From a bacterium (GTDB lineage: Bacteria > UBA10199 > JACPAL01 > GCA-016699445): DNA of 64,000 nucleotides. Below are positions 2,001 through 60,524 of the stretch, piece by piece (the stretch's first letter is position 1; each line of letters starts with the position of its first letter). The stretch covers positions 2,510 through 66,509 of the forward strand of contig DASUFF010000030.1 in NCBI GenBank assembly GCA_036274695.1, given 5' to 3'. Below the pieces are notes generated by a model, which was not told the origin of the DNA, did no database searches, and saw only the letters and a program-made list of their open reading frames with translations. The translations under genes were made by a program, and so were the position numbers.

Positions 2001-4393
2001 AGGGGGTTCGCCGTTCTTAAGACGCTGTCGGGCGTCGGGTTGGAGAAGGAGCACGTCAGTACGGTGCCTCCGTCGTCGCCTGACTTGATGTCGAGCACCC
2101 CGTTGATCATGCGCGCGCGGTATTTCATGATGTGCAGGCCGATTCCGGATCCCGGCTGCGTCTCGGCGCCGCCGGTGCCGTTATCTTCCACCGAAAGCGA
2201 CATCATGCTCCCTTGTTTTATCAGGCTCAAGTCTATCTTTTTCGCGCGCCCGTGCTTCACCGAGTTGCGCACGGCCTCCTGGGCGATCCGGTAGAGATGG
2301 GTGGCTAGGTCGTTGTCATCGATCAAGATGGGCTTGGGACAGACGAAGCGGCAGTCCACTCCGTAGCCGGTCGAGGTCCGGGACGCCAAGTCCTTCAGCG
2401 CGATCATGAGCGAATCGCCCTCGAGCTCGACGGGGTAGAACCCGCGGGCCATGTCTCGGGCCTGGGTGATCGACTGATCCAGGAGCTCGGCGATCTTCTT
2501 CATCTCGGGCGCCTCAGGCAGTTCGCGGCGTTCCATTTTCTGGGTGAGGACCTTCGCCAGGATCATGATGCCCGTCAAATCCTGGCAGAGGTCGTCGTGC
2601 AGATGGGTGCCGAGGCGCTTCTGCTCCTTCTCGCTGATCTCCAAGACCTCCTTCTCGACGCGTTTGCGCTCCAGGATCTCGGCCTTGAGGGTCTCGTTGA
2701 TGAGGGCCATCTGCGCGGTTCGCTGCTGGACGCGCTTCTCCATCTCGTCGTAGGCGAGCTTCAAATCGTATTCCGTCTTTTTTCTCTCCAGATACTGGCC
2801 GATCTCGCTGCCGATGAGTTCCAGGGATTGGAGAAGCTCGGGGTCGGGCTCTTCGAGCCGGTTCTCGAAGAATTCCATGACGCCCAGGATTTCGTCTCCC
2901 AACCGGATGGGAAAACCGAATCCGCTGCGAAGCCCGGATTGGATGGCCAAATCGGCATTCGGAAAGTTGGGATCGAGCGACAGGTCGTGGATCCAAAAGG
3001 CCTTGCCCAGGCTCCAAATGCGTCCCGGAAGGCCGACGTCCGGGGCGAGGGTCAGTCCCATCTTCGCCGACCGGAACGGCTCGTAGGTGGCGGGCGGCCG
3101 GATCCAAACGCGGCGGCATTGGATTTCCTCTTTCTCAGGGGAAACCTCCCAATAAGCTCCGAAGGCCCAGCCCAAGCCTTCGCAGACCGTCTGAAGGATG
3201 CCGTCGAAAAGCTCCTCGGTGGACAGGTCTTTCGCCAGAAATTGAGTGATTTTGTGTTCCATCTCCTGGCGCCGTTCTGCGACCTTGCGGTCGGTGATGT
3301 CGATCGCCGACCCGATGTAGCCCAAGAGCCTGCGGTCGGAGGTGAAGCGCGGCCGTCCCGTCTCCAGGACCCAGCGGTAGCGGCCGTCCGCGCGAAGGAG
3401 CCGGTATTCGGTCCGGAAGTCTTCCCGCGCGTGGAACGCCCCGAGATATGCGTCCACGCAGGCCGCTCGGTCGTCCGGGTGCACGCCTTCCGTCCATCCG
3501 TGCCCCTGCTCCTGCCTCAAGGTGCGGCCGCGGAAGGCGAGCCAGGGCTCGTTGAAATAGTAGCAGAGGGCGTCGGGACCGGACATCCAGACCATGACGG
3601 GCGCCTGGTCGGCGACCATGCGGAAGCGGGCCTCGCTCTCGCTCAAGGCGTTCTCGGCCTCCTTGCGCAAGGTGATGTCGTAGATGTGGACCGAGACGCC
3701 TTCGCTGGAAGGGGCGATGTGGATTTCGTAGGACCGCGACTTCTCGACGTCGCTGAACTCGAACTCGGAGCCCTCTTTAAGGTCCGCCGCCTTCCGGAGG
3801 TTCGTCTCGAACTCCGTATCCTTCCATCCGGGAAAGGCCTCCCATACGCTCTTTCCGTAGAGGGCTTCGCGCGGGTACGGCAGGATCTCCTTGCTGTCCT
3901 CGTTGATGTGGGTGAAGCGGTCTTCCTCGTCCAGGCTGAAGAAGCACCCCTGCACGCTGTCCAAGATGTTGCTGATCTTGTTTTGCGAGATCAGGAGGTC
4001 TTGATAGGTCCGCTGCTGTTTTTTCAGCGTTTGGCGCAGATTTTCCGTCAGCCGGCAGATGACCAGACCGACGAAGGCGAAAAGGGTCAGGTGGAGCAAG
4101 TCCACCTTGGCCGGGATCGCGAGCGCGCCCCGCGGTTCGATGAAGAAATACGTGGCGGCGAGCAGGCCGGCCAGGACGGAGGCGACTCCGGGGCCGAGTC
4201 CGCCGTACCACGCCGCGACGATCACGACCGGGTAATAAAAAACGAAAGGGGAGAGCGTCGGGCCGAAAATCGGCGCGGCCAGGGAGCTCAAGATCGTCGC
4301 CAGGCCCACGGAAAGGAGGGCGAGCCCGTAACGGAAAACGGGCCCGCGCCCCATCATCCTGCCGGGGGCCGGATTTTTATCCTTCGGCGCCAT
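1997..4393 (-). CDS. Membrane sensor histidine kinase: DUF4118-like membrane module, two PAS domains, a GAF domain, HisKA_3 and HATPase_c
   Basis: The HisKA_3 H-box reads HLHDDLCQDLTGIM. The C-terminus has an ATPase G-box. PAS and GAF blocks are visible in the translation. I take the start at MAPKDK (4393), because a start at 4519 would overlap the divergent transporter gene. Confidence 0.8.
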   Translation of the reverse strand: MAPKDKNPAPGRMMGRGPVFRYGLALLSVGLATILSSLAAPIFGPTLSPFVFYYPVVIVAAWYGGLGPGVASVLAGLLAATYFFIEPRGALAIPAKVDLLHLTLFAFVGLVICRLTENLRQTLKKQQRTYQDLLISQNKISNILDSVQGCFFSLDEEDRFTHINEDSKEILPYPREALYGKSVWEAFPGWKDTEFETNLRKAADLKEGSEFEFSDVEKSRSYEIHIAPSSEGVSVHIYDITLRKEAENALSESEARFRMVADQAPVMVWMSGPDALCYYFNEPWLAFRGRTLRQEQGHGWTEGVHPDDRAACVDAYLGAFHAREDFRTEYRLLRADGRYRWVLETGRPRFTSDRRLLGYIGSAIDITDRKVAERRQEMEHKITQFLAKDLSTEELFDGILQTVCEGLGWAFGAYWEVSPEKEEIQCRRVWIRPPATYEPFRSAKMGLTLAPDVGLPGRIWSLGKAFWIHDLSLDPNFPNADLAIQSGLRSGFGFPIRLGDEILGVMEFFENRLEEPDPELLQSLELIGSEIGQYLERKKTEYDLKLAYDEMEKRVQQRTAQMALINETLKAEILERKRVEKEVLEISEKEQKRLGTHLHDDLCQDLTGIMILAKVLTQKMERRELPEAPEMKKIAELLDQSITQARDMARGFYPVELEGDSLMIALKDLASRTSTGYGVDCRFVCPKPILIDDNDLATHLYRIAQEAVRNSVKHGRAKKIDLSLIKQGSMMSLSVEDNGTGGAETQPGSGIGLHIMKYRARMINGVLDIKSGDDGGTVLTCSFSNPTPDSVLRTANPL

Positions 4394-6997: not shown

Positions 6998-7861
6998 GTG
7001 GCTTCCTTGAAGAAACGCCTGCCCGCCAACGCCCCCGGCGACTTCTACGTCGACGCGACCTGCATCGACTGCGACACCTGCCGCTGGATGGCGCCGGAGA
7101 CCTTTGCCGAGAAGGACGGCAAGTCCTACGTCCACACCCAGCCCGGCGATCCGGAGCGAAGGCTGCGCGCGCTCAAGGCGCTGACGGCCTGCCCCACGGC
7201 GTCGATCGGGACGGAGGCGCGCCACGACATGGCGCCGGTCTTCGAAGCGTTGCCCGACTCCATAGAAGGCAACGTCTTCCACTGCGGCTTCCACGCGGAG
7301 GACAGTTTCGGCGCGGCCCCCTATCTCATCGTCCGTCCGCAGGGGAATATCCTCATCGATTCGCCCCGGTTCGCGTCCCCGCTCGTCAAGCGGTTGGAGG
7401 CGCTGGGCGGCGTGAAGACGCTCTTCCTCACGCACGGCGACGACGTGGCCGACCACCGCAAGTTCAAGGAGCATTTCGGCTGCGAGCGCATCCTGCACGC
7501 CGGCGACGTGCGCGCGTCGACCGAAGACGTCGAATTCAAGCTGGAAGGGGAGGAGGCGGTGCGCTGGGATAAGGAGATCCTCTTCCTCCCGACGCCGGGA
7601 CACACGAAGGGCTCGGCCTGCCTTCTCTATCGCGATCGTTTCCTCTTCACCGGCGATCACCTGGCCTGGGACGACGACGCGAACCGGTTGGAGGCCTTTC
7701 GGAACGCCTGTTGGTACGATTGGAAGGTGCAGCGGGAATCGATGAAACGCCTGGCGGACTACTCCTTCGGATGGGTCCTGCCCGGACACGGGCGGCGCGT
7801 TCACCTGCCCGCCGACCGGATGGCGACCGAACTGCAACGCTTGGTGGAGTGGATGGCGTGA
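6998..7861 (+). CDS. Ferredoxin-domain and metallo-beta-lactamase-fold fusion protein
   Basis: The N-terminus carries a single-cluster ferredoxin motif, CIDCDTCRWMAPETF with a downstream CP. The remainder is an MBL fold. It shows ILIDSP, a degenerate motif 2 (LTHGDDVADH instead of HxHxDH), and then PGHTKG, FTGDH and LPGHG. Confidence 0.6.
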   Translation: MASLKKRLPANAPGDFYVDATCIDCDTCRWMAPETFAEKDGKSYVHTQPGDPERRLRALKALTACPTASIGTEARHDMAPVFEALPDSIEGNVFHCGFHAEDSFGAAPYLIVRPQGNILIDSPRFASPLVKRLEALGGVKTLFLTHGDDVADHRKFKEHFGCERILHAGDVRASTEDVEFKLEGEEAVRWDKEILFLPTPGHTKGSACLLYRDRFLFTGDHLAWDDDANRLEAFRNACWYDWKVQRESMKRLADYSFGWVLPGHGRRVHLPADRMATELQRLVEWMA

Positions 7862-8889: not shown

Positions 8890-9429
8890 GTGGCGCCGGA
8901 ACGCGATGATTTCGAGGAGTTTGTCCGAGGCCAGCGGGAGCGCATGCTTCGGCTTTGCGCCGGGATCCTGTCGGATCCCGGCCAGGCCGAGGACGCCGCC
9001 CAGGAGGTTTTCGTGAAGGCCTACCGCGCCTGGGAGAATTTCCGCGGGGAGAGCTCGCGGTCGACCTGGCTCTACCGGATCGCCGTGCGCCACTGCGTCG
9101 ATCTGCTGCGCTTCCAGCAGCGTCTGCGCCGGATGTTCGCCACCGAAGGCGACGCGGCCGCGGAGGCGATGCAGGAGGCCCCCGGCGCGGAGGGCCGGCT
9201 GCCGGGATTCGAGACGGCGGTGGAATCGCGCATCGCCGCCAAGGAGATCCTGTCGGCCCTGCCGGAAGGGGACCGAGTGCTTCTGTCCTTAAGGGAGATC
9301 GAGGGATTGTCGTACGAGGAAATGGCGCGCGTTTTGGAGATTTCGGTGGAGGCCGTGCGTTCGAGGCTCGCACGCGCGCGACGCGCGCTGGCGCGCGTGT
9401 GGGAGAAAAGGCTTCAAGAGGGATCATGA
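8890..9429 (+). CDS. ECF (RpoE-like) sigma-70 family sigma factor
   Basis: It has a GTG start. Region 2 reads AQEVFVKAYRAWENFRGESSRSTWLYRIAVRHCVD. Region 4 reads LSLREIEGLSYEEMARVLEISVEAVRSRLARARRAL. Confidence 0.85.
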   Translation: MAPERDDFEEFVRGQRERMLRLCAGILSDPGQAEDAAQEVFVKAYRAWENFRGESSRSTWLYRIAVRHCVDLLRFQQRLRRMFATEGDAAAEAMQEAPGAEGRLPGFETAVESRIAAKEILSALPEGDRVLLSLREIEGLSYEEMARVLEISVEAVRSRLARARRALARVWEKRLQEGS

Positions 9430-9887
9430 AGAACGGCGACGAACATCTGCAGGTTTATCTTTTGGACGATCCGGAGACGGACGCCTCCGGGCGCCGCTCC
9501 ATCGAGGCGCATTTGGCGGGCTGCGCCGATTGCCTGCGTTCGCTGGAATCCTACCGCCGCGCCCGGCGGCTGATCGCGCCCCCGGAGGTTTCGCCGGAAA
9601 TTTCGGAGGTATCGACGGGGGATTTCGTGGAAAGGGTCTTTTCCAAGGTGGACGCCAAGCAAGCCTCGTCGCGGGAGGCCGGCAAACGCCGCTCGGTCTG
9701 GGCCTGGCCGGCCGCGGCCTTCGCGCTCGCGGCGGCGTTCGCGGCCGCCCTCTACTTCGGGTCCGCGCGGCCGGAGACGGATCAGGATCTGCTGGCGGGC
9801 GGGAACGAAGACTTTTATGAATGGGCGACGACGTCCGCGAGCCCGTCCGACGAGGACGTCTTGAAGGTCGTCTTGGAGGATCTCTGA
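9426..9887 (+). CDS. Zinc-finger (ZAS-type) transmembrane anti-sigma factor
   Basis: It overlaps the sigma gene stop by 4 bp. It carries an HLAGCADC (Hx3Cx2C) motif and one TM segment, WAWPAAAFALAAAFAAALYF. Confidence 0.7.
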   Translation: MKNGDEHLQVYLLDDPETDASGRRSIEAHLAGCADCLRSLESYRRARRLIAPPEVSPEISEVSTGDFVERVFSKVDAKQASSREAGKRRSVWAWPAAAFALAAAFAAALYFGSARPETDQDLLAGGNEDFYEWATTSASPSDEDVLKVVLEDL

Positions 9888-10261
9888 TGATTTCCTGGAA
9901 AACTCTGCTGGCGGGCTTTCTGATCGGTCTCATCGCCGGCGGCGGCTGGGGGGCGTGGTACGCGAAGGAGCACGGGCACTTCTGGGACAAGCCCGGGGGC
10001 CGCGAGGTCCGGCTTCTGAAGGAATTCACCCGTGAATTGGATTTGACGGACGCACAACGCGCGTCCGTCAGCGCCATCCTTCAAAGCCAGAGAGGGAGGA
10101 TCAAGGCGATTCGCTCCGAAATCCGCCCGCGCATGGAAGAGATCCGGGAGCAGGCCGGCGGAGAGATCCGCGCCTTGCTGGGCCCCGACCAGCAGGAGCG
10201 CTTCGATGTCCTGCAAATGCGCATGAAAGAGGAAAGGCGCAAGCGCGAGGAAAACCGCTGA
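9887..10261 (+). CDS. Membrane-anchored Spy/CpxP-like LTXXQ protein
   Basis: It has an ATGA overlap with the anti-sigma stop and an N-terminal TM helix. It carries LTXXQ-type motifs (LDLTDAQRASV and LLGPDQQERF). Confidence 0.65.
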   Translation: MISWKTLLAGFLIGLIAGGGWGAWYAKEHGHFWDKPGGREVRLLKEFTRELDLTDAQRASVSAILQSQRGRIKAIRSEIRPRMEEIREQAGGEIRALLGPDQQERFDVLQMRMKEERRKREENR

Positions 10262-10352
10262 ATCGATAAAAATTAGACGCTTTCCCCTTCCCGCCGCAAG
10301 GCGTTACAATACCCCTATCCCTCACGTCAGGACGATCCACCGGGAGGCGCTT

Positions 10353-11252
10353 GTGCGCGCGGCATGGCTTTTTGTCTGCGTGCTTTTTGTATCCGCGACG
10401 CTGCTGGGCGGCGGGCCGGCGGGGTGCGGCCAGACGGCCACCGAAGAACAGGCGGCCGTCGACACGGACGGCGACGGCGTGGTCGACGAAAGCGACAATT
10501 GCACGGCGGTCGCGAACGCGGACCAGGGCGATGCGGACGGCGACGGCGTCGGCGACGCCTGCGACGTCACCGCCTGCGAGGAGCAGGGCTACGATTGCCA
10601 GAGCCCTCTTTTTCTCTCCTGCGAAACCAAATCCGATTGTCTTTGTCTGATCGACGGCTGCGGCGAGACCTCGGGCGGCGTTCTGGACGCCGACCGGTTG
10701 GATTGCTGCAACGGTTTCTGCGTGAGCTTCGTCGATACGCCGCTGGAAACCTGCGAGGACCTGGCCGAGGCCGCGCCCGCCTGCTCGGAGACGGGCCACG
10801 TCTTTCCCGAATGCGGCTTCAGCGTCGGATGCGACGGCCGGGTGGCTTCCCCCGGATTCTTCGAGTGCCAGGCGGGCTGTTGCGGAAGGCGCCTGCCGGC
10901 CTTCATCGGCGAGGGCGAGCCCTGCGTCGCAGATCCCCTCTCCGAGCCCCAGTGCGATTTCGGAATGGCCTGCGTCGACGGGACGTGCGCCAAGATCTGT
11001 CCGGACGACGGCGCGGGCCAAGCGATCCTGACCTGCGAACAAGTGGCCCTGTTCGGTCCCGAGGGCGATTGCGGAAATTTCGGTTACGAGCCTTGCGATG
11101 AGGAGACGGGTTGTTGCGGCGCCCCGTTGCCGGCCGGTCCCTGCGACCCGTATCCCAGCTGCGGCGACGTCGGAAACGATTGCGCGGCCGTCGGCCTGGA
11201 AGGAGTCTGCGCGACGCCGGACGAGTGCTGCGTGTTGCCACCGGAGCCCTAA
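10353..11252 (+). CDS. Secreted Cys-rich protein with thrombospondin type-3 (DxDxDGxxDxxDNC) calcium-binding repeats
   Basis: It has a signal peptide. TSP3-like repeats read DTDGDGVVDESDNCTAVANADQGDADGDGVGDACD. These are followed by about 40 Cys in CxxC/CC clusters. Confidence 0.6.
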   Translation: MRAAWLFVCVLFVSATLLGGGPAGCGQTATEEQAAVDTDGDGVVDESDNCTAVANADQGDADGDGVGDACDVTACEEQGYDCQSPLFLSCETKSDCLCLIDGCGETSGGVLDADRLDCCNGFCVSFVDTPLETCEDLAEAAPACSETGHVFPECGFSVGCDGRVASPGFFECQAGCCGRRLPAFIGEGEPCVADPLSEPQCDFGMACVDGTCAKICPDDGAGQAILTCEQVALFGPEGDCGNFGYEPCDEETGCCGAPLPAGPCDPYPSCGDVGNDCAAVGLEGVCATPDECCVLPPEP

Positions 11253-27083: not shown

Positions 27084-28367
27084 ATGAGCCATCCCCAAGA
27101 TAACGCGCGCCATCGTGTGGTTCTTCTGGGCGGCGGCTTCGGCGGCCTCTACGCCGCCCAATCGATCCCAAGCGACTCCCCGATTGAGGTGACCCTCATC
27201 GACAAGCGCAACTTCCATCTCTTTCAACCTCTTCTCTATCAAGTCGCCACCGGAGGCCTCAGCCCCGGCGACATCGCTTCGCCCCTCCGCGCGATCCTGG
27301 CCAAGCGCAAGAACGTGACGGTCCTCCAAGTCGAGGCCATCGACCTCGATATTGCCGGCAATCAGGTTGTTCTGAAAGACGGCGCCGTTCCTTACGACAC
27401 GCTGATCATCGCCACCGGCGCCAGCCACCATTACTTCGGCCACGACGACTGGGCCGCCCACGCCCCGGGCCTGAAGACCGTCGAAGACGCCCTGGCGATC
27501 CGCCAGAAAATATTTTCCGCCTTCGAAAAGGCCGAGCGCGAGACGAATGAAGAGAATCGTCGCGCCTTGCTCACCTTCCTCCTGATCGGCGGGGGACCCA
27601 CGGGCGTGGAGATGGCGGGGGCGCTGGCGGAACTGGCGCACGACACGCTCAAGGGCGAGTTCAAGCGCATCGATCCGACGTGGGCGCGGATCGTCCTGAT
27701 CGAAGGCGTCGACCGCATCCTGCCGCCGTATCCGGAAAAGCTGTCGGAAAAGGCGCGCGCGTCGCTGGAAAAATTGGGCGTCGAGGTCCGCACCGGAACG
27801 TTGGTGACGGAGGTCCGCGACGGCGCCGTCACGATGAAACGGGGCGAGGAGACGGAGACCATCGAAGCGGCGACGATCTTTTGGGCCGCGGGCGTTCAAG
27901 CCTCGCCCGTGGGAAAGATTCTGGCGGCCAAGACCGGCGCGTCGCTCGACCGCGCGGGACGGGTCTTGGTGGAAAAAGATCTCACCGTCCCCGGTCATCC
28001 CGAAATTTTCGTGATCGGCGATCTGGCGAATTTTTCCCATCAGGGCGGCAAGCCCTTGCCGGGCATCGCCCCCGTCGCGATGCAGCAGGGGAGGTACGTC
28101 GCGGATCTGGTTCAACGCCGGATCAACGGCGCTCCGCAATGGCCGTTCGTCTATCAAGACAAAGGCAGCCTGGCCGTCATCGGCCGGAATGCGGCGGTGG
28201 CCGATTTGGGAAATCTCCGATTCAGCGGCTTCCCCGCGTGGCTCCTCTGGGTCTTCGTCCACATCCGCTACTTGATCGAGTTCGACAACAAGGCCTTGGT
28301 GCTCTTCCAATGGGCCTGGAATTACCTCACCCGCAAGCGCGGGGCGCGGCTGATCACCAATGAATAG
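27084..28367 (+). CDS. ndh: Type II NADH dehydrogenase (NDH-2)
   Basis: It has two FAD/NAD Rossmann motifs, VVLLGGGFGGLYAA and LIGGGPTGVEMAGAL. The C-terminal membrane-anchor region is conserved. Confidence 0.85.
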   Translation: MSHPQDNARHRVVLLGGGFGGLYAAQSIPSDSPIEVTLIDKRNFHLFQPLLYQVATGGLSPGDIASPLRAILAKRKNVTVLQVEAIDLDIAGNQVVLKDGAVPYDTLIIATGASHHYFGHDDWAAHAPGLKTVEDALAIRQKIFSAFEKAERETNEENRRALLTFLLIGGGPTGVEMAGALAELAHDTLKGEFKRIDPTWARIVLIEGVDRILPPYPEKLSEKARASLEKLGVEVRTGTLVTEVRDGAVTMKRGEETETIEAATIFWAAGVQASPVGKILAAKTGASLDRAGRVLVEKDLTVPGHPEIFVIGDLANFSHQGGKPLPGIAPVAMQQGRYVADLVQRRINGAPQWPFVYQDKGSLAVIGRNAAVADLGNLRFSGFPAWLLWVFVHIRYLIEFDNKALVLFQWAWNYLTRKRGARLITNE

Positions 28368-52364: not shown

Positions 52365-52934
52365 ATGGCACGCATCCTTATGATCGAACCGACGCCCAAC
52401 CCCATGGCCTTCAAGCTCCGCTTGGACCAGAAGGTCGCCGTCGGCGGCAGCAAGCAATACAACAAGAAGGAAGAATGCTGGGACATGCCCGTGGCCGGAA
52501 AGCTTTTCGACGTTCACGGCGTCGAATCCGTCTTCCTGATGGACGATTTCATCACGGTGACCAAGACCGTCGGCGGCATTTGGGACTACATCTTCTTCCA
52601 GGCCAACGAGATCCTGATGGCGGCCAAGGACATTGTGGCCATCAGAGTCGGGGAAGGCGGCGAGTTCAAGAATCTGGACTCGGATGAGTTCGACAAGCTG
52701 CCCAGCGACCAAAAACTTTCCTACATCGACCGCGTGATCGACGAGACCATCCGTCCGGGCCTGGCGCGCGACGGCGGCAATCTGAAGATTCTCGGCTTGG
52801 AAGAAAACATCCTGCGCGTCCAGTACCAGGGCGCCTGCGGCAGTTGCCCGAGCTCGACGGGCGCGACGCTGAATTACATTTCCAACATGCTTCAGAGCCG
52901 GGTGAGCCCGAATATCCAAGTCATTCCCGGATAA
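52365..52934 (+). CDS. Nfu/NifU-like Fe-S cluster scaffold (Nfu_N plus NifU C-terminal domain)
   Basis: It has a C-terminal CGSCPSS CxxC motif. The N-terminal Nfu domain is MIEPTPNPMAFKL. Confidence 0.75.
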   Translation: MARILMIEPTPNPMAFKLRLDQKVAVGGSKQYNKKEECWDMPVAGKLFDVHGVESVFLMDDFITVTKTVGGIWDYIFFQANEILMAAKDIVAIRVGEGGEFKNLDSDEFDKLPSDQKLSYIDRVIDETIRPGLARDGGNLKILGLEENILRVQYQGACGSCPSSTGATLNYISNMLQSRVSPNIQVIPG

Positions 52935-52942
52935 TTCCTTCC

Positions 52943-53554
52943 ATGACCAAGAAAGAAGCCTCGACCAAAGAGAAGATCCTGCTCGCGGCGGAAGATGAAT
53001 TCGCCGAGCAAGGCTTCGCCGGCGCGCGCACGCAGGAAATCGCCCGCAAGGCGCAGGTCAACAAGGCCCTCATCCATTACTATTATAAGGATAAGTCCTC
53101 CCTCTATCAGGCGGTGATGGATGAAATGATGTACGACCTGATCCGCATCAGCCAGGACGTGGCCAAGCGGAAGCTTACGGGCAAGGCGTTGGTGGAGGCC
53201 CTCGTTTCCGACTTTTTTGATTTCGCCGCGCGCCATCCGCATTTCGCCAAGCTCACCACCGCCGGTTCGACTATGGGGGATGCGAAGTATCTGGAGACCA
53301 GCATCAAGAACCTTTTTCGTCCGCTCTTTCAGCGTGGCGTCGAGTTTTTGGAAGAACACATGGAGAAGGGGGCGATCCGGAAGGTGGATGCGCCCCAGTT
53401 TCTCGTGTCGGCCTTGCTCCTGACGCTTTCTTACTTCGCCATGCAGCCGATGATCTCGCTGCTCTTAGGTAAGGATGCTGCCTCCAAAACAGCCTTGGAA
53501 CAGCGAAAGAAGTCGGTTCTGGATTTTGTCTTCGCTACGTTGGGGGTCCAATAA
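52943..53554 (+). CDS. TetR-family transcriptional regulator
   Basis: The HTH reads EKILLAAEDEFAEQGFAGARTQEIARKAQVNKALIHYYYKDK. Confidence 0.75.
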   Translation: MTKKEASTKEKILLAAEDEFAEQGFAGARTQEIARKAQVNKALIHYYYKDKSSLYQAVMDEMMYDLIRISQDVAKRKLTGKALVEALVSDFFDFAARHPHFAKLTTAGSTMGDAKYLETSIKNLFRPLFQRGVEFLEEHMEKGAIRKVDAPQFLVSALLLTLSYFAMQPMISLLLGKDAASKTALEQRKKSVLDFVFATLGVQ

Positions 53555-53578: not shown

Positions 53579-53962
53579 CTAGCCATGTAGTTTAACAGCC
53601 CCTATCGCAGCGACTTTCTGAAAAATCTGATCTCGCGTCAGCAAATACCCCTCTAAGTCTCGCGCGCACTGCGCGATGTGCGCATCCGGAATCGACATGG
53701 AAATTCCGTGACTCGCCGCTTGATGCCGCAGCCTTCCCACTGCGATCCAATGTTCCTCCGGCGTCGCGTGAAGCGGCAGCTCATGCAGGAATTCGGCAAG
53801 TTGCTTCTCTTCGTTTTTATTGTGAACCCCGCTGATCAACTCCGCCAGAACGATGGGAGAGAGGACAACCCGTCCTTCTTTTAGGGCGAGCTCCAGTTCA
53901 GGAAAGCTCTGCCCCCGAAAGAAATCGATCCAAACGGAGGTATCAACGAGGAGTACGTTCAC
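53579..53962 (-). CDS. vapC: PIN-domain toxin VapC
   Basis: The PIN N-terminus VLLVDTSVWIDFF is present with conserved acidic residues. Confidence 0.75.
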   Translation of the reverse strand: MNVLLVDTSVWIDFFRGQSFPELELALKEGRVVLSPIVLAELISGVHNKNEEKQLAEFLHELPLHATPEEHWIAVGRLRHQAASHGISMSIPDAHIAQCARDLEGYLLTRDQIFQKVAAIGAVKLHG

Positions 53963-54167
53963 GGAGGGTGTCGATGTCCAAGTCGAGATTGAGGCGACCC
54001 TTCAGGGCCATTCCTTTTTCGTAAGCCCGGCTGCGGCGGATCAGTTGAAGGCCCTGGATGAGAGTCTCGGTAATCCCTTGTCCCGTGGCCTCCAAGGCCT
54101 CTTCCAGAAGGTCTTCCGGGAGATTGGCGGTGATACGCCGAGCAGGATTTTTAATGTTTTTCGTCAT
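53943..54167 (-). CDS. vapB: VapB-type antitoxin
   Basis: It is about 74 aa and overlaps the vapC start by 20 bp. The N-terminus is small and helical, MTKNIKNPARRITANLPEDLLEEAL. Confidence 0.6.
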   Translation of the reverse strand: MTKNIKNPARRITANLPEDLLEEALEATGQGITETLIQGLQLIRRSRAYEKGMALKGRLNLDLDIDTLRERTPR

Positions 54168-54228
54168 GATAACTATACTAACAATGATATGTATCGTCGT
54201 CAATACGGCTCAGGATGCTAAGAATTAT

Positions 54229-54272
54229 CTTAACCGCTTGGATTAACCACTCAGATTAACCAAATAGTTAAC
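54229..54272. repeat. Tandem 13-bp repeat (ATTAACCnnnnnG, three copies plus a partial fourth) in the promoter region of the activase operon
   Basis: cTTAACCgcttgg / ATTAACCactcag / ATTAACCaaatag / TTAAC, then TTTTTT. Confidence 0.7.
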
Positions 54273-54357
54273 TTTTTTCTTGCCCCCCACGGGTATCCTG
54301 TGCCAATTTCCGTTCAATCTTAACCAACCAGTTAATCAACGAAATAGGGGGATTTTC

Positions 54358-56103
54358 ATGGAACCCACTCAGATCCAATCCGTTGACGAGATCATCCAGC
54401 AGCGTTTGGCCGAAAAGCGGAACGCCTTGATGGCCGAGGCGGGCTTGAAAAAGCCGGTGCATCACTTCGAGCGTCCCAAGGAAAACCCCTTCCTGAAATC
54501 CCAGCGCGGAACGACGAAGGTCCTCTTCGGCGGCCTCACGTGGAAACACGAAAAGCTGATCCAGGCCGCGTGGGAAGGCTTGGGCTACATCGCCGAACCG
54601 GTTGAAGTGCCGGACGTGAAGGCCTTCCAGTTGGGTAAGGAGTACGGCAACAACGGCCAGTGCAACCCGACCTACTTCACCGTCGGCAACCTCGTACAGC
54701 ATCTCCAAAAGCTGGAAGAGAAGGGGATGAGCAAGCAGGAGATCATCGACAAGCACATCTTCATCACAGCCGGGGCCTGCGGCCCTTGTCGGTTCGGCAT
54801 GTACGAGGCTGAGTATCGGCTCGCTCTCCGCAACTCCGGCTTCGACGGCTTCCGCGTCATCCTCTTCCAGCAGTCCGGCGGCTTGAACCAGTCCGACGCC
54901 GAGCAGGGCCTGGACATGAACCTCGATTTCTTCCTCGGCATCTTAAACGCCATGAACATGGGCGACCTGATCAACGACATCGCCTACCAGATCCGTCCCT
55001 ACGAGGTGACCAAGGGCGAGACCGACCGCGTCCTCGGCGAATGCATGGATTACCTGTTCGGCGTGATGAAGAACCACAAGCCGTTCAAGCTGGAAGGCAA
55101 GATCGCGAAGTTCCTGCGCGCGCTGCCCAGCGCGGCCTCGACCACGGAATACGTCGGTAAGTTCCTCTCGCAGCTTTTGGGCGACGAGTACGTGAAGGCT
55201 TTCGCGGAGGTCGGTCGCCGTTTCAACGCCATCGAGATCGACCGCACGCGCGCCAAGCCCATCGTCAAGATCACAGGCGAGTTCTGGGCCCAGACCACCG
55301 AGGGCGACGGCAACTTCAACATGTTCCCCTTCTTGGAAAAGGAAGGCGCCCAGGTTCTGGTGGAGCCGATCGGGACATGGATCATGTATATGATCCATCA
55401 GGTCGTCCAAAAATATAAGGACCAGAAGGGGCTCGAAGACGGGGCGACGTTGCCGTCCTGGAGCAAGTTCGGAAAGCGCCTGTCGATCGAGTCGAATTAC
55501 CGCAAGAAGGTGGCGAAGTTGAAAGTGGCCGAACGCATCTTCGAGCGCGAATGGAACCGCCTGCGCGGGGCCCTCGGAAACATGCCGCACGCGCTCGCCA
55601 ACCAGTACGAACTCCAGCGCGAAGGGCATCCGTATTACAACAGCCGCGCCGGCGGCGGCGAAGGCCACTTGGAAGTCGCTAAGAACATCTACTACTCGCA
55701 CAAGGACCTGGCCCACATGGTGTTGTCGGTCAAACCCTTCGGTTGTATGCCGTCCACCCAGTCGGACGGCGCGCAGGCCGCGGTCGTGTCTCAATATAAA
55801 GACATGATCTATCTGCCCATCGAGACCTCCGGTGAAGGCGCCGTCAACGCGCACAGCCGCGTGCAGATGGCCTTGGGCGAGGCCAAGTTCAAGTGCAAGG
55901 CCGAGTTCGCCGACGCGGTGAAGTCGACGGGCTATACGCTCCCCGAAATCCAGGAATACATCCAGGCTCATGCCGAGCTGAAGACGCCATTTTATCATGT
56001 GCCGCATTACAAGGGCATCGTGGGCGTGGCTGCGAGTTTCGTGAAGCACGTCGGCGAGCGGATGGCGAAGGACGGCGTGAAGGCGCAGGCGAAGGCGGCG
56101 TAA
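54358..56103 (+). CDS. Acyl-CoA dehydratase/activase-related protein (DUF2229/HgdB-like component, no ATPase domain)
   Basis: It is 581 aa. It carries the Cys-containing blocks FITAGACGPCRFGMYE and VKPFGCMPSTQSDGA. It is co-oriented with, and 70 bp upstream of, the fused activase gene. Confidence 0.6.
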   Translation: MEPTQIQSVDEIIQQRLAEKRNALMAEAGLKKPVHHFERPKENPFLKSQRGTTKVLFGGLTWKHEKLIQAAWEGLGYIAEPVEVPDVKAFQLGKEYGNNGQCNPTYFTVGNLVQHLQKLEEKGMSKQEIIDKHIFITAGACGPCRFGMYEAEYRLALRNSGFDGFRVILFQQSGGLNQSDAEQGLDMNLDFFLGILNAMNMGDLINDIAYQIRPYEVTKGETDRVLGECMDYLFGVMKNHKPFKLEGKIAKFLRALPSAASTTEYVGKFLSQLLGDEYVKAFAEVGRRFNAIEIDRTRAKPIVKITGEFWAQTTEGDGNFNMFPFLEKEGAQVLVEPIGTWIMYMIHQVVQKYKDQKGLEDGATLPSWSKFGKRLSIESNYRKKVAKLKVAERIFEREWNRLRGALGNMPHALANQYELQREGHPYYNSRAGGGEGHLEVAKNIYYSHKDLAHMVLSVKPFGCMPSTQSDGAQAAVVSQYKDMIYLPIETSGEGAVNAHSRVQMALGEAKFKCKAEFADAVKSTGYTLPEIQEYIQAHAELKTPFYHVPHYKGIVGVAASFVKHVGERMAKDGVKAQAKAA

Positions 56104-56172
56104 ATCCACCGCCCCCAACCCCCTCCTTAATAAGGAGGGGGATCAAAGGGGGAGGTAACGCGGAGACACACG

Positions 56173-59100
56173 ATGTCAGAAACCAAATTCCTAGTCGGCG
56201 TCGACGTCGGTTCCACCACGGTCAAGGCGGTCGTCGTTGAAGTGGCCACCGACAAGATGATCTGGAGCGACTACCAGCGTCACGAGACCAAGCAGCCGGA
56301 AAAGACCCTCGAGCTCTTGAAGGAGATCGAGGACAAGACCGGCGTCTGCGCCGGCAACACCCGGATGTTCATCACGGGCTCCGGCGGCGGGGGGATCGGC
56401 GCGCGGTTGGGCGCCAAGTTCGTCCAGGAAGTGAACGCGGTTTCGCTGGCGGTGGAAAAGCTTCATCCGGAGGTTCAGTCCGTCGTCGAGTTGGGCGGCC
56501 AGGACGCCAAGATGATCTTCTTCAAGGAGATCGAGGAATCCGGAAAAAAGAAAAAGATGCCGACGATGAACGATAAATGCGCCGGCGGCACGGGCGCCGT
56601 CATCGACAAGATCAACGCCAAGTTGCGCATCCCCTCGGAACAGCTCTGCCAATTGGGACACACGGGCATCAAGCTGCATCCCGTCGCCGGCAAGTGCGGC
56701 GTGTTCGCCGAGTCCGACATCAACTCGCTGCAGAAAATGGGCATTCCGAACGACGAGCTCATGGCGTCGCTGTTCGAATCCATCATCGTTCAAAACCTGT
56801 CGGTTTTGACTCGGGGCAATACCCTCAAGCCCACCGTCCTCCTGTTGGGCGGCCCCAATTGTTATATCAAGGGCATGAAGGAAGCCTGGCGGAACAACAT
56901 CCCCAAAATCTGGGAAGAGCGCGGCGTGGAAGTGCCGGACAAACCCATCGAAGAATTGATCAAGGTCCCGGAGAACGCCCAGTACTACGCGGCGTTGGGC
57001 GCCATCGAGTACGGCAAGACGGAGGACGAGGACATCGGCCAATACAAAGGCGCCGGCGAACTCGAGCACTACATCAAGGTCGGCCGTCAGGAAGAAATGG
57101 CGAAAAAGGCGGCCCAAAGCGGCGGCGGCAAGGGCTTGATCAAGGACGAAGCGGAGTTAAACGAATTCCTGGATCGCTATAAGAAGGAAAAATTCATCCC
57201 CACGACGTTCGAAGCGGGAACGGTGGTGGAGGGGTTCATCGGTTTGGACGGCGGTTCGACGTCGACCAAGGCCGTGCTCGTCAGCAAGGACAAGAAGATT
57301 TTGGCCAAGGCCTACCAGCTTTCGAAGGGCAATCCGATCCAGGACACCATCGAGGTCATCGGAAATCTGCAAAAAATGATCGAGGACCAGGGCTGCACGA
57401 TGAACGTCTTGGGCATCGGGACGACCGGTTACGCCAAGGACATCTTGAAGGATACTCTGAACGGCGACGCCGCCATCGTGGAAACGGTCGCGCACACGGA
57501 ATCCGCCCTGCATTTTTATCCGGATACGGACGTCATCGTCGACGTCGGCGGGCAGGACATCAAGGTGATGATCCTGAAGAACGGCCGCGTCAAAGACTTC
57601 AAGCTCAACACCCAGTGCTCCGCCGGCAACGGTTACTTTCTGCAGTCGACCGCCCAAGGCTTCGGCGTTCCCGTGGAAGATTTCGCCGCGAAGGCCTTCT
57701 CGGCGAAGACGTTCCCGGAATTCGGCTACGGCTGCGCCGTCTTCATGCAGTCCGACATCGTCGATTTTCAGCGCCAGGGTTGGAAGCCGGAAGAGATCAT
57801 GGCGGGACTCGCCAACGTGTTGCCGAAAAACATCTGGCTCTACGTCTCTCAGATCCCGAATCTGTCTTCGCTCGGCACCAAGTTCGTCCTGCAAGGCGGC
57901 ACCCAGCATAATATGGCGGCGGTCAAATCCCAGGTGGATTTCATCGAATCGCGCTTCAAGGACAAGGGGCTCAAGCCCGACGTCGTCGTTCACAAGCACT
58001 GCGGCGAGGCCGGGGCCATCGGCGCCGGCATCGAAGCCGCGCGCCTTTACGCCAACGGGCATCGCACGAAGTTTATCGGGTTGGACCGCGTGAAGGAGAT
58101 CACCTACCGCACCACCCGCAGCGAAGAGACGCGATGTTACTTCTGCAAGAACAAGTGCCTGCGCACGTTTATCGACGTGAAGACGAAGAGCACGACGGAG
58201 ATTAAGGCGGAAGACGTGCCGGTGTTCAAGTCGAAGGTGCCGCTGGAGCCGGGAGAGAATCGGATCATCATCGCCACCTGCGAAAAGGGCACGGTCGAGG
58301 ACGTCAACGCCATGCGCGGCATCAAGAAGGGGCTGGACGCCATCAAGGAGAAGAACCCCAACATGGTCCACTGGGCCGCGGAGAACGTTTGGAAGTCGTT
58401 CAAGCCGCCCTTGGTGGCAGACGCGATCCCGGAAAAGATCAAGAACGATAAGATGAAGGCGCGCGTCGAGCTTATGAAGCGTCGCGCCGAGCTGAAAATC
58501 GGCATCCCGCGCGTGCTCAATCAGTATTCGACGAACCCGTTGTTCACGGCCTACTTCGAATCGCTGGGGATCCAGCCGCAGAACATCGTCTATTCCGACT
58601 TCACCGACGAGAAGCTCTACAAGGACGGCGCCAAGCGCGGCGCGATTGATCCGTGCTTCCCGTCCAAGGTCGGTATCCCGCACGTGCACAATCTGCTCTT
58701 CACGCAGCACGAGAAGAAGAAGCTCGATTACATCTTCTTTCCGATGATCGACGATTTGCTCACGCCCTTGAAGAACGTCCAGGCCAGCCGCGCCTGCCCG
58801 ACCGTCACCGCGACGCCGGAGGCCGTGAAGGCCGCGTTCACCAAGGAAGGCGACATCTTCGCGGAAAAGGGGATCAAGTACCTTGACACCTTCGTGAACG
58901 TCGGTACGCCGAAACTCTTCGAACGCCAGATGTTCGAGCAGTTCGTGGATATCCTCGGGCTCTCGCCCGAGGAGAACGCCCGCGCCGTCGCCGAAGGCTA
59001 CAAGGCTTTGAAGGCTTTCGACGATACGCAGCGGATCATGGGACGCGAGACCATCGAAATGTTGGAAAAGGAAAACCGCCTCGGCGTCGTCTTGCTCGGC

Positions 59101-59655
59101 CGCCCGTACCACAACGATCCCGGAATCAATCACGAGATCTTGGAGGAGTTCCAAAAATTGGGCTATCCGGTGCTCACGCAGGATTCCTTGCCGATCGATC
59201 GGGACATCTTGGATCGGTTGTTCGGCGAAGAGGTCGAGAAGGGGATCGTGAGCCACGCGTTGGACGTCAAGGACGCCTGGAAAAACTCCTACTCCGAGAA
59301 CACCACGCGCAAGGTTTGGGCCGCGAAGTTCGCCGCGCGCCATCCGAACCTGGTGGCCTTGGAGCTCTCCAGTTTCAAGTGCGGTCACGACGCGCCGGTC
59401 TACACCGTGGTGGAAGAAGTCATCGAGCACTCGGGCACGCCCTACTTCTGCTTCAAGGACATCGACGAGAACAAGCCCACCGGATCGATCAAGATCCGCT
59501 TGGAGACGATGCACTACTTCCTGACCCGCTACCGCGAGGACATGCTCAAGGCCGAGAAGAAGCTGGAAGGCATCGAGGCGGAATTGAAGGCCTACGAAGA
59601 ACAGTTGCGGCGGGAGTTGGGGGCGGGGTATCAGCCGAGCGTCGTTAATTTGTAG
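56173..59655 (+). CDS. CoA-substrate-specific enzyme activase fusion: two BadF/BadG/BcrA/BcrD-type ATPase domains plus a C-terminal 2-hydroxyacyl-CoA-dehydratase-like region
   Basis: It is 1160 aa. The two ASKHA phosphate-1 loops are VGVDVGSTTVKAVVV and IGLDGGSTSTKAVLV. The C-terminal half has conserved Cys blocks (ASRACPTV, SSFKCGHDAPV). Confidence 0.75.
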   Translation: MSETKFLVGVDVGSTTVKAVVVEVATDKMIWSDYQRHETKQPEKTLELLKEIEDKTGVCAGNTRMFITGSGGGGIGARLGAKFVQEVNAVSLAVEKLHPEVQSVVELGGQDAKMIFFKEIEESGKKKKMPTMNDKCAGGTGAVIDKINAKLRIPSEQLCQLGHTGIKLHPVAGKCGVFAESDINSLQKMGIPNDELMASLFESIIVQNLSVLTRGNTLKPTVLLLGGPNCYIKGMKEAWRNNIPKIWEERGVEVPDKPIEELIKVPENAQYYAALGAIEYGKTEDEDIGQYKGAGELEHYIKVGRQEEMAKKAAQSGGGKGLIKDEAELNEFLDRYKKEKFIPTTFEAGTVVEGFIGLDGGSTSTKAVLVSKDKKILAKAYQLSKGNPIQDTIEVIGNLQKMIEDQGCTMNVLGIGTTGYAKDILKDTLNGDAAIVETVAHTESALHFYPDTDVIVDVGGQDIKVMILKNGRVKDFKLNTQCSAGNGYFLQSTAQGFGVPVEDFAAKAFSAKTFPEFGYGCAVFMQSDIVDFQRQGWKPEEIMAGLANVLPKNIWLYVSQIPNLSSLGTKFVLQGGTQHNMAAVKSQVDFIESRFKDKGLKPDVVVHKHCGEAGAIGAGIEAARLYANGHRTKFIGLDRVKEITYRTTRSEETRCYFCKNKCLRTFIDVKTKSTTEIKAEDVPVFKSKVPLEPGENRIIIATCEKGTVEDVNAMRGIKKGLDAIKEKNPNMVHWAAENVWKSFKPPLVADAIPEKIKNDKMKARVELMKRRAELKIGIPRVLNQYSTNPLFTAYFESLGIQPQNIVYSDFTDEKLYKDGAKRGAIDPCFPSKVGIPHVHNLLFTQHEKKKLDYIFFPMIDDLLTPLKNVQASRACPTVTATPEAVKAAFTKEGDIFAEKGIKYLDTFVNVGTPKLFERQMFEQFVDILGLSPEENARAVAEGYKALKAFDDTQRIMGRETIEMLEKENRLGVVLLGRPYHNDPGINHEILEEFQKLGYPVLTQDSLPIDRDILDRLFGEEVEKGIVSHALDVKDAWKNSYSENTTRKVWAAKFAARHPNLVALELSSFKCGHDAPVYTVVEEVIEHSGTPYFCFKDIDENKPTGSIKIRLETMHYFLTRYREDMLKAEKKLEGIEAELKAYEEQLRRELGAGYQPSVVNL

Positions 59656-59661
59656 AAAAAC

Positions 59662-59699
59662 ATAGGTCCTATGGGGCCTATACGACTTATAGGACTTAT
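59662..59699. repeat. Degenerate copy of a 38-bp palindromic element
   Basis: CATAGGTCCTATGGGGCCTATACGACTTATAGGACTTAT. The right half matches the perfect copy at 60144..60181 with one mismatch. Confidence 0.6.
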
Positions 59700-59979
59700 G
59701 TCTTTTGAATCTCAGAAAATCTTGTTTCAAATTTACAGAGAAGGCAGCTTCAACCGCCGTTACCGCGTGGTGTACTTCACCGAACTGGGCGACAAGAACA
59801 AAGAGAGCGAGATCAACCACGCCCTGGCGGGCGACCCCATCTACGACGGCTTCATCAAGGACTTCCGCAAGGACGAGGCCAAGGCCATTATTGACCGGCA
59901 TCTCGATGCTTTAAACAACGGCGAGAGCTTTAATGCCGAGCAGTTCAAGCAGGATCTAAAGTCTTACATGCCATCCTAA
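59698..59979 (+). CDS. Small hypothetical protein (93 aa) with codon usage that strongly prefers C-ending codons
   Basis: The ORF begins immediately after the palindromic element. Its codon usage (AAC, AAG, GAC, ATC, TTC bias) differs from the surrounding genes. Confidence 0.4.
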   Translation: MSFESQKILFQIYREGSFNRRYRVVYFTELGDKNKESEINHALAGDPIYDGFIKDFRKDEAKAIIDRHLDALNNGESFNAEQFKQDLKSYMPS

Positions 59980-60524
59980 AATCTGCGGTGCTGCCTGCGG
60001 GCCTGATACAGGCGCTCGGTAAAGCCGCCTTCCTCTAAAAATTTTCTTTCTAGTTGCCGGAGCTGTTGGTCGAGCAGGTAGTTGGCTTGGTGAATCAGAC
60101 AAAGGGCGGTGTTGGCCGCGGTTTCCGGGTCCCCGCGTTCAAAATAAGTCCTATAGGTCGTATACGACCTATAGGACTTATACCCAAGTTGCCTCACCTC
60201 GAGAGCGCGCAGGTCGTTCTTGCTCCACAAAGTAAGGCCGCGCTGTCTTAAAAAATCCTCAAAATCGAGCAGGAGTTCCTCCAAGCTAGCGCGGGCTACC
60301 CCCATCAGTTTCAGCTCTGTCTTTTTAGAGGTGCCGGAGGCCATGCTTCCTTCGGCGATGTTCTGTTTGCCGCTGCGGGCGGCTTGAACCATTTGGTCGT
60401 GGGTGCGGGATCTTCGCTCAATGAACCGGTCGCAGAACCGCAGCGTGGCGTCATAGATGATTTCCGCGGTCTGGTAGGACTTCAGGTTTCGATAGCCGCC
60501 ATGAGAGGGAATGAGCTCAGTCAT
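59976..60524 (-). CDS. Four-helix-bundle protein (TIGR02436 / 23S rRNA intervening-sequence protein family), interrupted in-frame by a palindromic insert
   Basis: The N-terminal two-thirds matches the family pattern (…SGKQNIAEGS…SLEELLLDF…). The segment GYKSYRSYTTYRTYFE is encoded exactly by the 38-bp palindrome. This gene uses atypical codons (AGA, TTA, GTA, CGA). Confidence 0.55.
   Translation of the reverse strand: MTELIPSHGGYRNLKSYQTAEIIYDATLRFCDRFIERRSRTHDQMVQAARSGKQNIAEGSMASGTSKKTELKLMGVARASLEELLLDFEDFLRQRGLTLWSKNDLRALEVRQLGYKSYRSYTTYRTYFERGDPETAANTALCLIHQANYLLDQQLRQLERKFLEEGGFTERLYQARRQHRRF
60144..60181. repeat. Perfect 38-bp palindrome ATAAGTCCTATAGGTCGTATACGACCTATAGGACTTAT
   Basis: I verified the exact reverse-complement symmetry by eye. 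It lies inside the four-helix-bundle ORF. Confidence 0.9.

Follow-up and report, generated by a model that had tools for sequence, protein, structure and literature searches.

A probable split glycerolipid ester reductase of the PlsA/PlsR-Ger family encoded by a two-gene locus

Introduction

What is reduced by a two-gene system in which one protein joins two ATP-dependent activase domains to a dehydratase-like module, and the other has no recognizable domain at all? The question is raised by a locus in a 64,000-nucleotide stretch of bacterial DNA (contig DASUFF010000030.1), referred to here as the window, which carries gene 1 (54358..56103, + strand, 581 amino acids (aa)) and gene 2 (56173..59655, + strand, 1160 aa), deposited in GenBank as HEX5036001.1 and HEX5036002.1, respectively. 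An earlier sequence-only reading had placed both open reading frames (ORFs) correctly and had assigned the system to the superfamily of benzoyl-CoA reductase (BCR) and 2-hydroxyacyl-CoA dehydratase (HAD) radical enzymes, an assignment on which the folds of the ATPase domains and of gene 1 agree. It had also treated the substrate and pathway of such fusions as undescribed, which has to be corrected: the architecture has one, in the plasmalogens made by PlsA/PlsR and the 1-O-alkyl ethers made by Ger. The seemingly unknown system thus already has a plausible published function.

Sequence comparison makes it likely that the pair is a split PlsR/PlsA-type (Ger-like) glycerolipid ester reductase, forming sn-1 vinyl or alkyl ether lipids. 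The same comparison places the pair in the PlsA/PlsR-Ger family as a new putative member, within a clade that has already been proposed to form the ether bond of glycerol dialkyl glycerol tetraethers of the branched type (brGDGTs) in Solibacter usitatus. In the following sections we set out the evidence for this assignment, weigh it against other explanations and describe the surroundings of the locus.

Domain architecture of the gene pair

Gene 2, the predicted PlsA equivalent, contains two PF01869 BcrAD_BadFG domains (whole-protein E 2.8e-70), followed at residues 775-1006 by PF09989, also known as DUF2229 (E 9.4e-51), and it additionally matches TIGR00241, 'acyl-CoA dehydratase activase'. 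The first ASKHA ATPase domain covers about aa 6-300 and the second about aa 351-627, and each has its own phosphate loop, VGVDVGST at residue 8 and IGLDGGST at residue 356, as the sequence-only reading had claimed. The ASKHA fold of both domains and their cluster ligands are confirmed, the closest relatives being HgdC, HadI and MbdQ/MbdP. Gene 2 therefore has what characterizes an archerase-type activator, namely the ASKHA fold, the phosphate loop and two cysteines per protomer for an interface [4Fe-4S] cluster, with C136/C175 in ATPase 1 and C482/C521 in ATPase 2 as the putative bridging pairs. The ATPases are followed by a CxxCxxxC...C segment (C655, C658, C662 and C703), by the DUF2229 module, here called Red1 (aa 775-about 1100, with C828, C875 and C1070), and by a long C-terminal helix (aa 1103-1152).

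Gene 1, whose ATG is preceded by AGGGGG, is the candidate PlsR equivalent, a second reductase/dehydratase module (Red2). It has no ATPase domain and returns zero Pfam or NCBIfam matches, and a profile of its family found nothing among the sequences of the PDB. Its structural model has the fold of the catalytic subunits of HAD, BCR and DCCP enzymes, with matches to HadC, BzdN and MbdN. Candidate [4Fe-4S] ligands in gene 1 are C102, C144 and C463 (plus C141). The prediction of an ATPase-less, dehydratase-like subunit with conserved cysteines is thereby borne out. Among the Pfam families expected for the two proteins, BcrAD_BadFG and DUF2229 are found in gene 2, while HGD-D (PF06050) is undetected in gene 1 and gene 2, even weakly. 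In GenBank (HEX5036001.1) and JGI, gene 1 and its homologues are labelled 'activator of (R)-2-hydroxyglutaryl-CoA dehydratase' or 'predicted nucleotide-binding protein (sugar kinase/HSP70/actin superfamily)'. As no ASKHA or ATPase domain is detectable in this family, these labels are a propagated misannotation.

Relationship to PlsA/PlsR and Ger

According to summaries of Jackson 2021 in later papers (PMC9702350, PMC8788747, PMC12838417), PlsA and PlsR produce plasmalogens from diacyl lipids. Ger of Thermotoga maritima and Desulfatibacillum alkenivorans is built around a core of two PF01869 domains and one PF09989 domain (the BBD core), and its expression in Escherichia coli yields 1-O-alkyl glycerol ethers, in the case of the T. 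maritima enzyme under anoxic conditions only (PMC13159169). All alkyl-ether producers share this core of two activation domains and one reduction domain, and so does PlsA (PMC13159169). Gene 2 has the same core, its activase domains lying N-terminal to the DUF2229 'reduction' domain, and within the literature searched, the lipid and enzyme papers that mention DUF2229 are the Ger papers only.

A published pairing links the two-gene layout to acidobacterial homologues. PlsA of Clostridium perfringens (CPE1195, 1004 aa) aligns with S. usitatus Acid_0922 (1188 aa) at 30.2% identity, 96% coverage and E 1.5e-126, and PlsR (CPE1194, 420 aa) with Acid_0921 (589 aa) at 20.9% and E 2.3e-14 (Halamka et al., PMC10087280, Table S5). 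Gene order and sizes in this pairing are the same as in the window. The window pair is probably orthologous to Acid_0921/0922, since it is about 70% identical to loci labelled Solibacter or Bryobacteraceae and the lengths match (589 aa in a Ca. Solibacter metagenome-assembled genome (MAG), locus L047).

Direct alignment to a protein of a plasmalogen producer was possible with a subject found by tblastn of gene 1 against an annotated plasmid collection, in which chromosomal records had been filed as plasmids. The Pls protein of Listeria monocytogenes (WP_014600632.1) is encoded by one coding sequence of 1475 aa. Gene 2 is colinear with its residues 5-973 (E 1e-136; 30% identity in 1110 aligned positions). 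The alignment of gene 1 covers residues 992-1400 (22%, E 1e-19), with C102, C144 and C463 standing opposite Listeria cysteines. In the Listeria and Collinsella Pls proteins, Pfam detects the two activase domains and DUF2229 only, and neither HGD-D nor an extra DUF2229 in the second module (E up to 0.01). In general, then, Pfam does not see the PlsR-equivalent module. A tblastn search of gene 2 against the same collection, made in order to find a Ger-type organism, returned only Brevibacillus, Listeria, Fusobacterium, Collinsella and similar genera.

Distribution, linkage and natural fusions

Homologues of both proteins number in the thousands at about 70% identity, and an exhaustive representative search (E up to 1e-3) gave 1724 relatives of gene 1. 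For neighbourhood analysis we used the best 80 of at least 590 loci in GTDB species representatives (L001-L080, the distant loci), together with two loci of the close lineage, L081 and L082, whose gene 1 is 94% and 84% identical to that of the window, respectively. The distant loci span 64-73% identity, and no GTDB species representative among those listed is closer than 73%. The sequence-only reading had described such fusions as widespread in anaerobes, which does not fit this clade: its named-source homologues come mostly from Acidobacteriota (Bryobacteraceae, Terriglobia, Blastocatellia) and other environmental phyla rather than from classic anaerobes, with single ones from Latescibacteria, Acidimicrobiia and Alphaproteobacteria, and the record titles of the distant loci add Poribacteria, Zixiibacteriota, Dadabacteria and a 'Spirochaetia' MAG. 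A search for S. usitatus Acid_0921 seeded with L047 returned Bryobacteraceae proteins only, either unnamed or from MAGs, and puts identity of the gene 1 family in Bryobacteraceae at 84-90%.

The two genes are tightly linked. Gene 2 lies downstream of gene 1 and in the same direction in 77 of the 80 distant loci, and of the remaining three, two sit on truncated contigs. In addition, both possible orders occur as natural fusions, each covering the two genes essentially full-length: P0269 (1623 aa) has the gene 1-like part before the BBD core, and P0298 (1579 aa) has it after the core. Alignment to Listeria Pls, fusion, adjacency and the HAD/BCR-like fold together identify gene 1 as the second module of the system.

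Two further observations concern individual loci. In L038, the third exception, a gene 1 homologue (9037-10842) with ample flanks is not followed by gene 2 but by a convergent 615-aa ORF, which is either a genuine uncoupling or an artefact of MAG assembly. On a metagenome contig from ENA, protein P0277 (1271 aa) combines a gene 1-like part with Fer4_20 and Pyr_redox_2 domains, which resemble the NAD(P)H-FAD oxidoreductases GltD and NfnB, and with two 4Fe-4S ferredoxin domains; this composition hints at an NAD(P)H-linked electron supply in some lineages.

Other recurrent, though not universal, neighbours among the distant loci are a VOC/glyoxalase-like gene of 167 aa between or after the pair (11 loci), a divergent 468-aa polytopic membrane protein directly upstream, which looks like a lipase maturation factor (12 loci), and a YkgJ-type CxxCxxCC protein downstream of the pair (7 loci).

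Proposed mechanism and alternative explanations

A mechanism can be proposed on the basis of what is observed, namely the architecture, the ligand cysteines, the fold of gene 1 and that of the ATPase domains, the tiling along Pls, the fusions and the gene linkage. The two ASKHA domains of gene 2 would form an intramolecular pseudo-dimer with a bridging [4Fe-4S] cluster held by C136/C175 and C482/C521. From this cluster, ATP hydrolysis would push a low-potential electron, probably via the C655/C658/C662/C703 segment, to cysteine-ligated clusters in two paralogous HAD/BCR-like modules, Red1 (C828, C875 and C1070) and Red2 (C102, C144 and C463). In a membrane glycerophospholipid, the carbonyl of the sn-1 acyl ester would then undergo two one-electron reductions, protonation and dehydration, giving the vinyl ether of a plasmalogen, and in Ger-type enzymes a further reduction would lead to the saturated 1-O-alkyl ether. 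What we infer are the types of the clusters, the path of the electron, a lipid as the substrate and a vinyl or alkyl ether as the product.

Several points weigh against reading the pair as a lipid ester reductase. Identity to the enzyme of a plasmalogen producer is only 22-30%, gene 1 exceeds PlsR in length by about 160 aa, and the pathway of S. usitatus is termed 'yet unverified' in the literature. HGD-D and DUF2229 signals are absent from gene 1 and 28 members of its family even in a relaxed Pfam scan (E up to 10), although such signals in the second module are not universal in the family, as the Listeria and Collinsella Pls proteins lack them too. Profile-profile comparison of gene 1 with the C-terminal half of gene 2 gives a non-significant E of 0.16, in an alignment that pairs C102 with C828. 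The neighbourhood comparison that the sequence-only reading had suggested as a source of clues to the substrate did uncover a recurrent partner, the 93-aa gene described below, but no gene of lipid synthesis (Tes, Mss, acyltransferases) is conserved in the 80 distant loci or present in the window. Finally, the contig has aerobic traits, NDH-2 (27084..28367, + strand) and a membrane fatty acid desaturase (PF00487; 38029..39375, - strand), which suggest an aerobic or facultative host, whereas the enzyme class is usually O2-sensitive. PlsA of Enterococcus faecalis, Lactococcus cremoris and Bifidobacterium longum has been tested in E. coli, and the objection from oxygen is softened by the L. cremoris enzyme, which works there aerobically; Listeria is reported to have pls orthologues that seem active anaerobically (PMC9702350).

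The sequence-only reading had implicitly modelled the system on the classical enzymes of CoA thioesters, that is, as an activator fused to a 2-hydroxyacyl-CoA dehydratase or an aryl-CoA reductase. The proximity of the ATPase domains to HgdC, HadI and MbdQ/MbdP, the agreement of the gene 1 fold with HadC, BzdN and MbdN, and database names such as 'CoA activase' and 'acyl-CoA dehydratase activase-related' would fit such an enzyme. Homology that tiles the full length goes to Pls proteins instead, the function-known DUF2229 proteins are lipid ester reductases, PF06050 is missing from both proteins and from the 28 family members, gene 1 has no match among PDB sequences, and none of the 80 distant loci has a conserved adjoining gene for a CoA-transferase, a CoA-ligase or acyl-CoA metabolism, so that we regard this explanation as very unlikely. 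An ATP-dependent low-potential reductase resembling DCCP, with an enlarged cluster of the double-cubane type and a small or non-lipid substrate, appears no more likely.

The closest contender leaves family and mechanism as proposed and differs in the product, which would be a plasmalogen with an sn-1 vinyl ether, as for PlsA/PlsR, rather than a saturated alkyl ether, as for Ger. The two-gene split and the order, PlsR-like before PlsA-like, match CPE1194/CPE1195 of C. perfringens, and the sole aligned anchor, the Listeria protein, comes from a plasmalogen producer. Moreover, this protein likewise has two ATPase domains, and the rule that two such domains mean an alkyl ether is therefore not discriminating; in general, PlsA and Ger are indistinguishable from sequence (PMC13274423), which also counts against too specific an assignment. 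On the other hand, homologues with two ATPase domains occur in alkyl-ether producers, and Acidobacteria with homologues (PlsAR in S. usitatus, Ger in Edaphobacter aggregans) are reported to make saturated iso-C15 mono- and diethers as well as brGDGTs. We consider a vinyl ether product somewhat unlikely, if well within reason. Since these Acidobacteria produce alkyl ethers as well as brGDGTs, and ElbD is missing from S. usitatus, our analysis leans modestly towards a saturated alkyl ether as the product of the clade.

Downstream and upstream surroundings

A split glycerolipid ester reductase may not consist of the two large proteins only. A small gene downstream of gene 2 (59698..59979, + strand, 93 aa; likely ATG at 59698, longest ORF from 59671) is found at the same place in L081 and L082, where it is also called as 93 aa. 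Of the 57 distant loci that leave enough room downstream, 21 have it as well, always on the strand of gene 2 and with 42-58% identity across phyla. The protein has no cysteine, no transmembrane segment and no Pfam or NCBIfam match, and is likely an accessory subunit, at present a candidate.

Repeats accompany this region. A perfect 38-nt palindrome, ATAAGTCCTATAGGTCGTATACGACCTATAGGACTTAT, lies at 60144-60181 within a gene for a four-helix-bundle, 23S-rRNA-IVP-like protein (59976..60524, - strand), where it encodes YKSYRSYTTYRTY. A copy with 87% identity occupies 59662-59699, between the stop of gene 2 and the likely start of the small gene. These are the only two copies in 64 kb (expected 0), and the palindrome is possibly a small mobile element or one resembling repetitive extragenic palindromic (REP) sequences. 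Within the 69-bp spacer between gene 1 and gene 2, a GC-rich palindrome, CCCCCTCCTTAATAAGGAGGGGG, can be read from the sequence at 56119..56141 (+ strand). The corresponding spacer of L081 has a different inverted repeat (7760-7795), and L082 has no spacer; the palindrome may be an intercistronic hairpin that is kept by position, not by sequence.

Upstream, the window carries a gene for a NifU/Nfu-type Fe-S cluster carrier (52365..52934, + strand; Pfam Nfu_N and NifU), which is context only, followed by a TetR-family regulator (52943..53554, + strand; Pfam TetR_N and TetR_C_29) that is a candidate repressor of the operon. The NifU gene is syntenic in L081 and L082 and absent from the 80 distant loci, and its product may supply clusters to the Fe-S-rich enzyme. 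TetR orthologues of 203-204 aa stand upstream of gene 1 in both loci, directly so in L082, the common order of both loci being NifU, TetR, gene 1, gene 2 and the small gene. TetR immediately follows NifU in the window (52365..53554) and in L081 (3652-4832), and three other genes separate the two in L082 (NifU at 2487-3059).

Between the TetR gene and gene 1, the window contains a gene for VapC (53579..53962, - strand; PIN E 2.8e-16) and one for a VapB-like antitoxin (53943..54203, - strand), the latter recognized by position and without a family match. The TetR and VapBC flanks noted by the sequence-only reading are thus present, but their meaning changes. In L082, TetR immediately precedes gene 1, with no VapBC between them, and L081 also lacks the pair at the corresponding position; VapBC is therefore a local insertion outside the system. 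A TetR homologue occurs within 10 kb of the gene pair in none of the 80 distant loci, even at a relaxed E-value, and its synteny is confined to the close lineage. TetR and VapBC were accordingly rejected as integral parts of the system. Around the same region, L082 has other toxin-antitoxin modules, HicA and Gp49/HTH (857-1048, 3135-3808), which points to a local hotspot for the insertion of such modules in the NifU-TetR-pls region.

The tandem 13-bp repeat reported in front of the operon exists in so far as three TTAACC half-sites follow each other at 13-bp spacing (54230, 54243 and 54256; 54230..54271); it is less a simple repeat than, on the sequence evidence, a series of half-sites of candidate 16-bp palindromic operators. 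The series ends in the operator-like palindrome 1, TTAACCAAATAGTTAA (54256-54271), which reads TTAACCGATTAGTTAA in L081 and TTAACCATCCGGTTAA in L082 at the same position. Palindrome 2, TTAACCAACCAGTTAA (54320..54335), lies about 20 nt before the start of gene 1, and is identical in L081 and reads TTAACCAACCGGTTAG in L082. Both palindromes keep their position in the three loci, while the intervening sequence diverges. If up to 2 mismatches are allowed, the motif TTAACCNNNNGGTTAA (TTAACC-N4-GGTTAA) occurs three times in 64 kb, each time within 54230-54335, compared with 0.48 expected occurrences. In the window lineage, the upstream TetR protein probably represses the operon via two TTAACC-N4-GGTTAA palindromes; like the TetR gene, these palindromes are missing from the 80 distant loci. 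It has to be held against this arrangement that we infer the binding of TetR to the palindromes from their sequence and position, and that a scan for sigma-70-type promoters upstream of gene 1 gave no site on the + strand.

Implications

The lipids known as brGDGTs underlie proxies of palaeotemperature and pH that are in wide use, and both their producers and the enzyme that forms their ether bond are still unverified. The window clade corresponds to the candidate already proposed for this step in S. usitatus. To that proposal, the present analysis adds gene 1 as the likely PlsR equivalent, a third gene in about a third of the loci, and a lineage-specific arrangement of TetR and putative operators. 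Pfam does not see gene 1 and BLAST easily overlooks it, which accounts for published reports of its absence. Conservation of the pair is extreme (64-73% among the listed loci, with their several phyla), its genes are almost always adjacent, and both genes together should provide a cleaner genomic marker.

A bolder and distinctly more doubtful proposition is that the long PlsR-like protein, the BBD protein and the 93-aa protein constitute an oxygen-compatible ether-bond enzyme of those bacteria in soil and sponges that are aerobic or facultative (Acidobacteriota, Latescibacterota, Poribacteria and others). If true, this module would be the missing ester-to-ether step in the biosynthesis of alkyl-ether lipids and brGDGTs, and the 93-aa protein, together with gene 1's extra helical inserts, would represent adaptations, such as cluster shielding, lipid presentation or docking of an electron donor, that the enzymes of anaerobes lack.

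Comparison with known systems

With their archerase activators, the 2-hydroxyacyl-CoA dehydratases, the benzoyl-CoA reductases of class I and DCCP share with the window pair the ASKHA activator fold, the cysteine pair of the bridging cluster and the fold of the catalytic subunit. The window pair differs from them in that it has no HGD-D signature, its activator is duplicated and fused to a catalytic module, and its predicted substrate is a membrane lipid ester instead of a CoA thioester or small molecule.

Ger (T. maritima Tmari_0479; D. alkenivorans SHJ90043; Sahonero-Canavesi et al. 2022) has in common with the pair the BBD core followed by a second reductase/dehydratase region. In Ger, however, this region belongs to a single polypeptide and gives short PF06050/PF09989 matches at the C-terminus, whereas here it is a separate upstream gene without a Pfam signal. 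The architecture of gene 2 is that of the preprint's 'ger architecture 2' (BBD only), reported from Acidobacteriota and Latescibacterota, and because gene 1 is a separate gene without a Pfam signal, screens based on Pfam and BLAST report it as absent.

Single-polypeptide Pls proteins occur in facultative anaerobes, as in Listeria and Collinsella aerofaciens (WP_238057640.1), and gene 2 and gene 1 tile the Listeria protein from residue 5 to about 1400 of its 1475 residues. The latter differs in being fused, in its opposite module order, in its 22-30% identity and in having no counterpart of C141 of gene 1. A TetR/AcrR gene adjoins the pls gene in Collinsella, and the same is reported for E. faecalis. 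Brevibacillus laterosporus (NZ_CP011076.1), the closest homologue found in a cultured organism in this analysis, has a split and unannotated pair in the reversed order, the BBD protein (1168 aa, 48% identical to gene 2) preceding the smaller one (545 aa, 40.5% identical to gene 1).

The PlsA/PlsR system of C. perfringens is likewise a two-gene operon with the small reductase subunit first and the ATPase-ATPase-DUF2229 protein second, and is of the BCR/HAD type with ATP-driven electron injection. Compared with it, the window proteins are longer (581 aa for gene 1 vs 420 aa for PlsR; 1160 aa for gene 2 vs 1004 aa for PlsA), a conserved 93-aa gene is added, and the hosts belong to environmental, largely aerobic phyla. 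The two-gene layout and the protein lengths of the S. usitatus pair, finally, are those of the Bryobacteraceae homologues to which the window proteins are about 70% identical.

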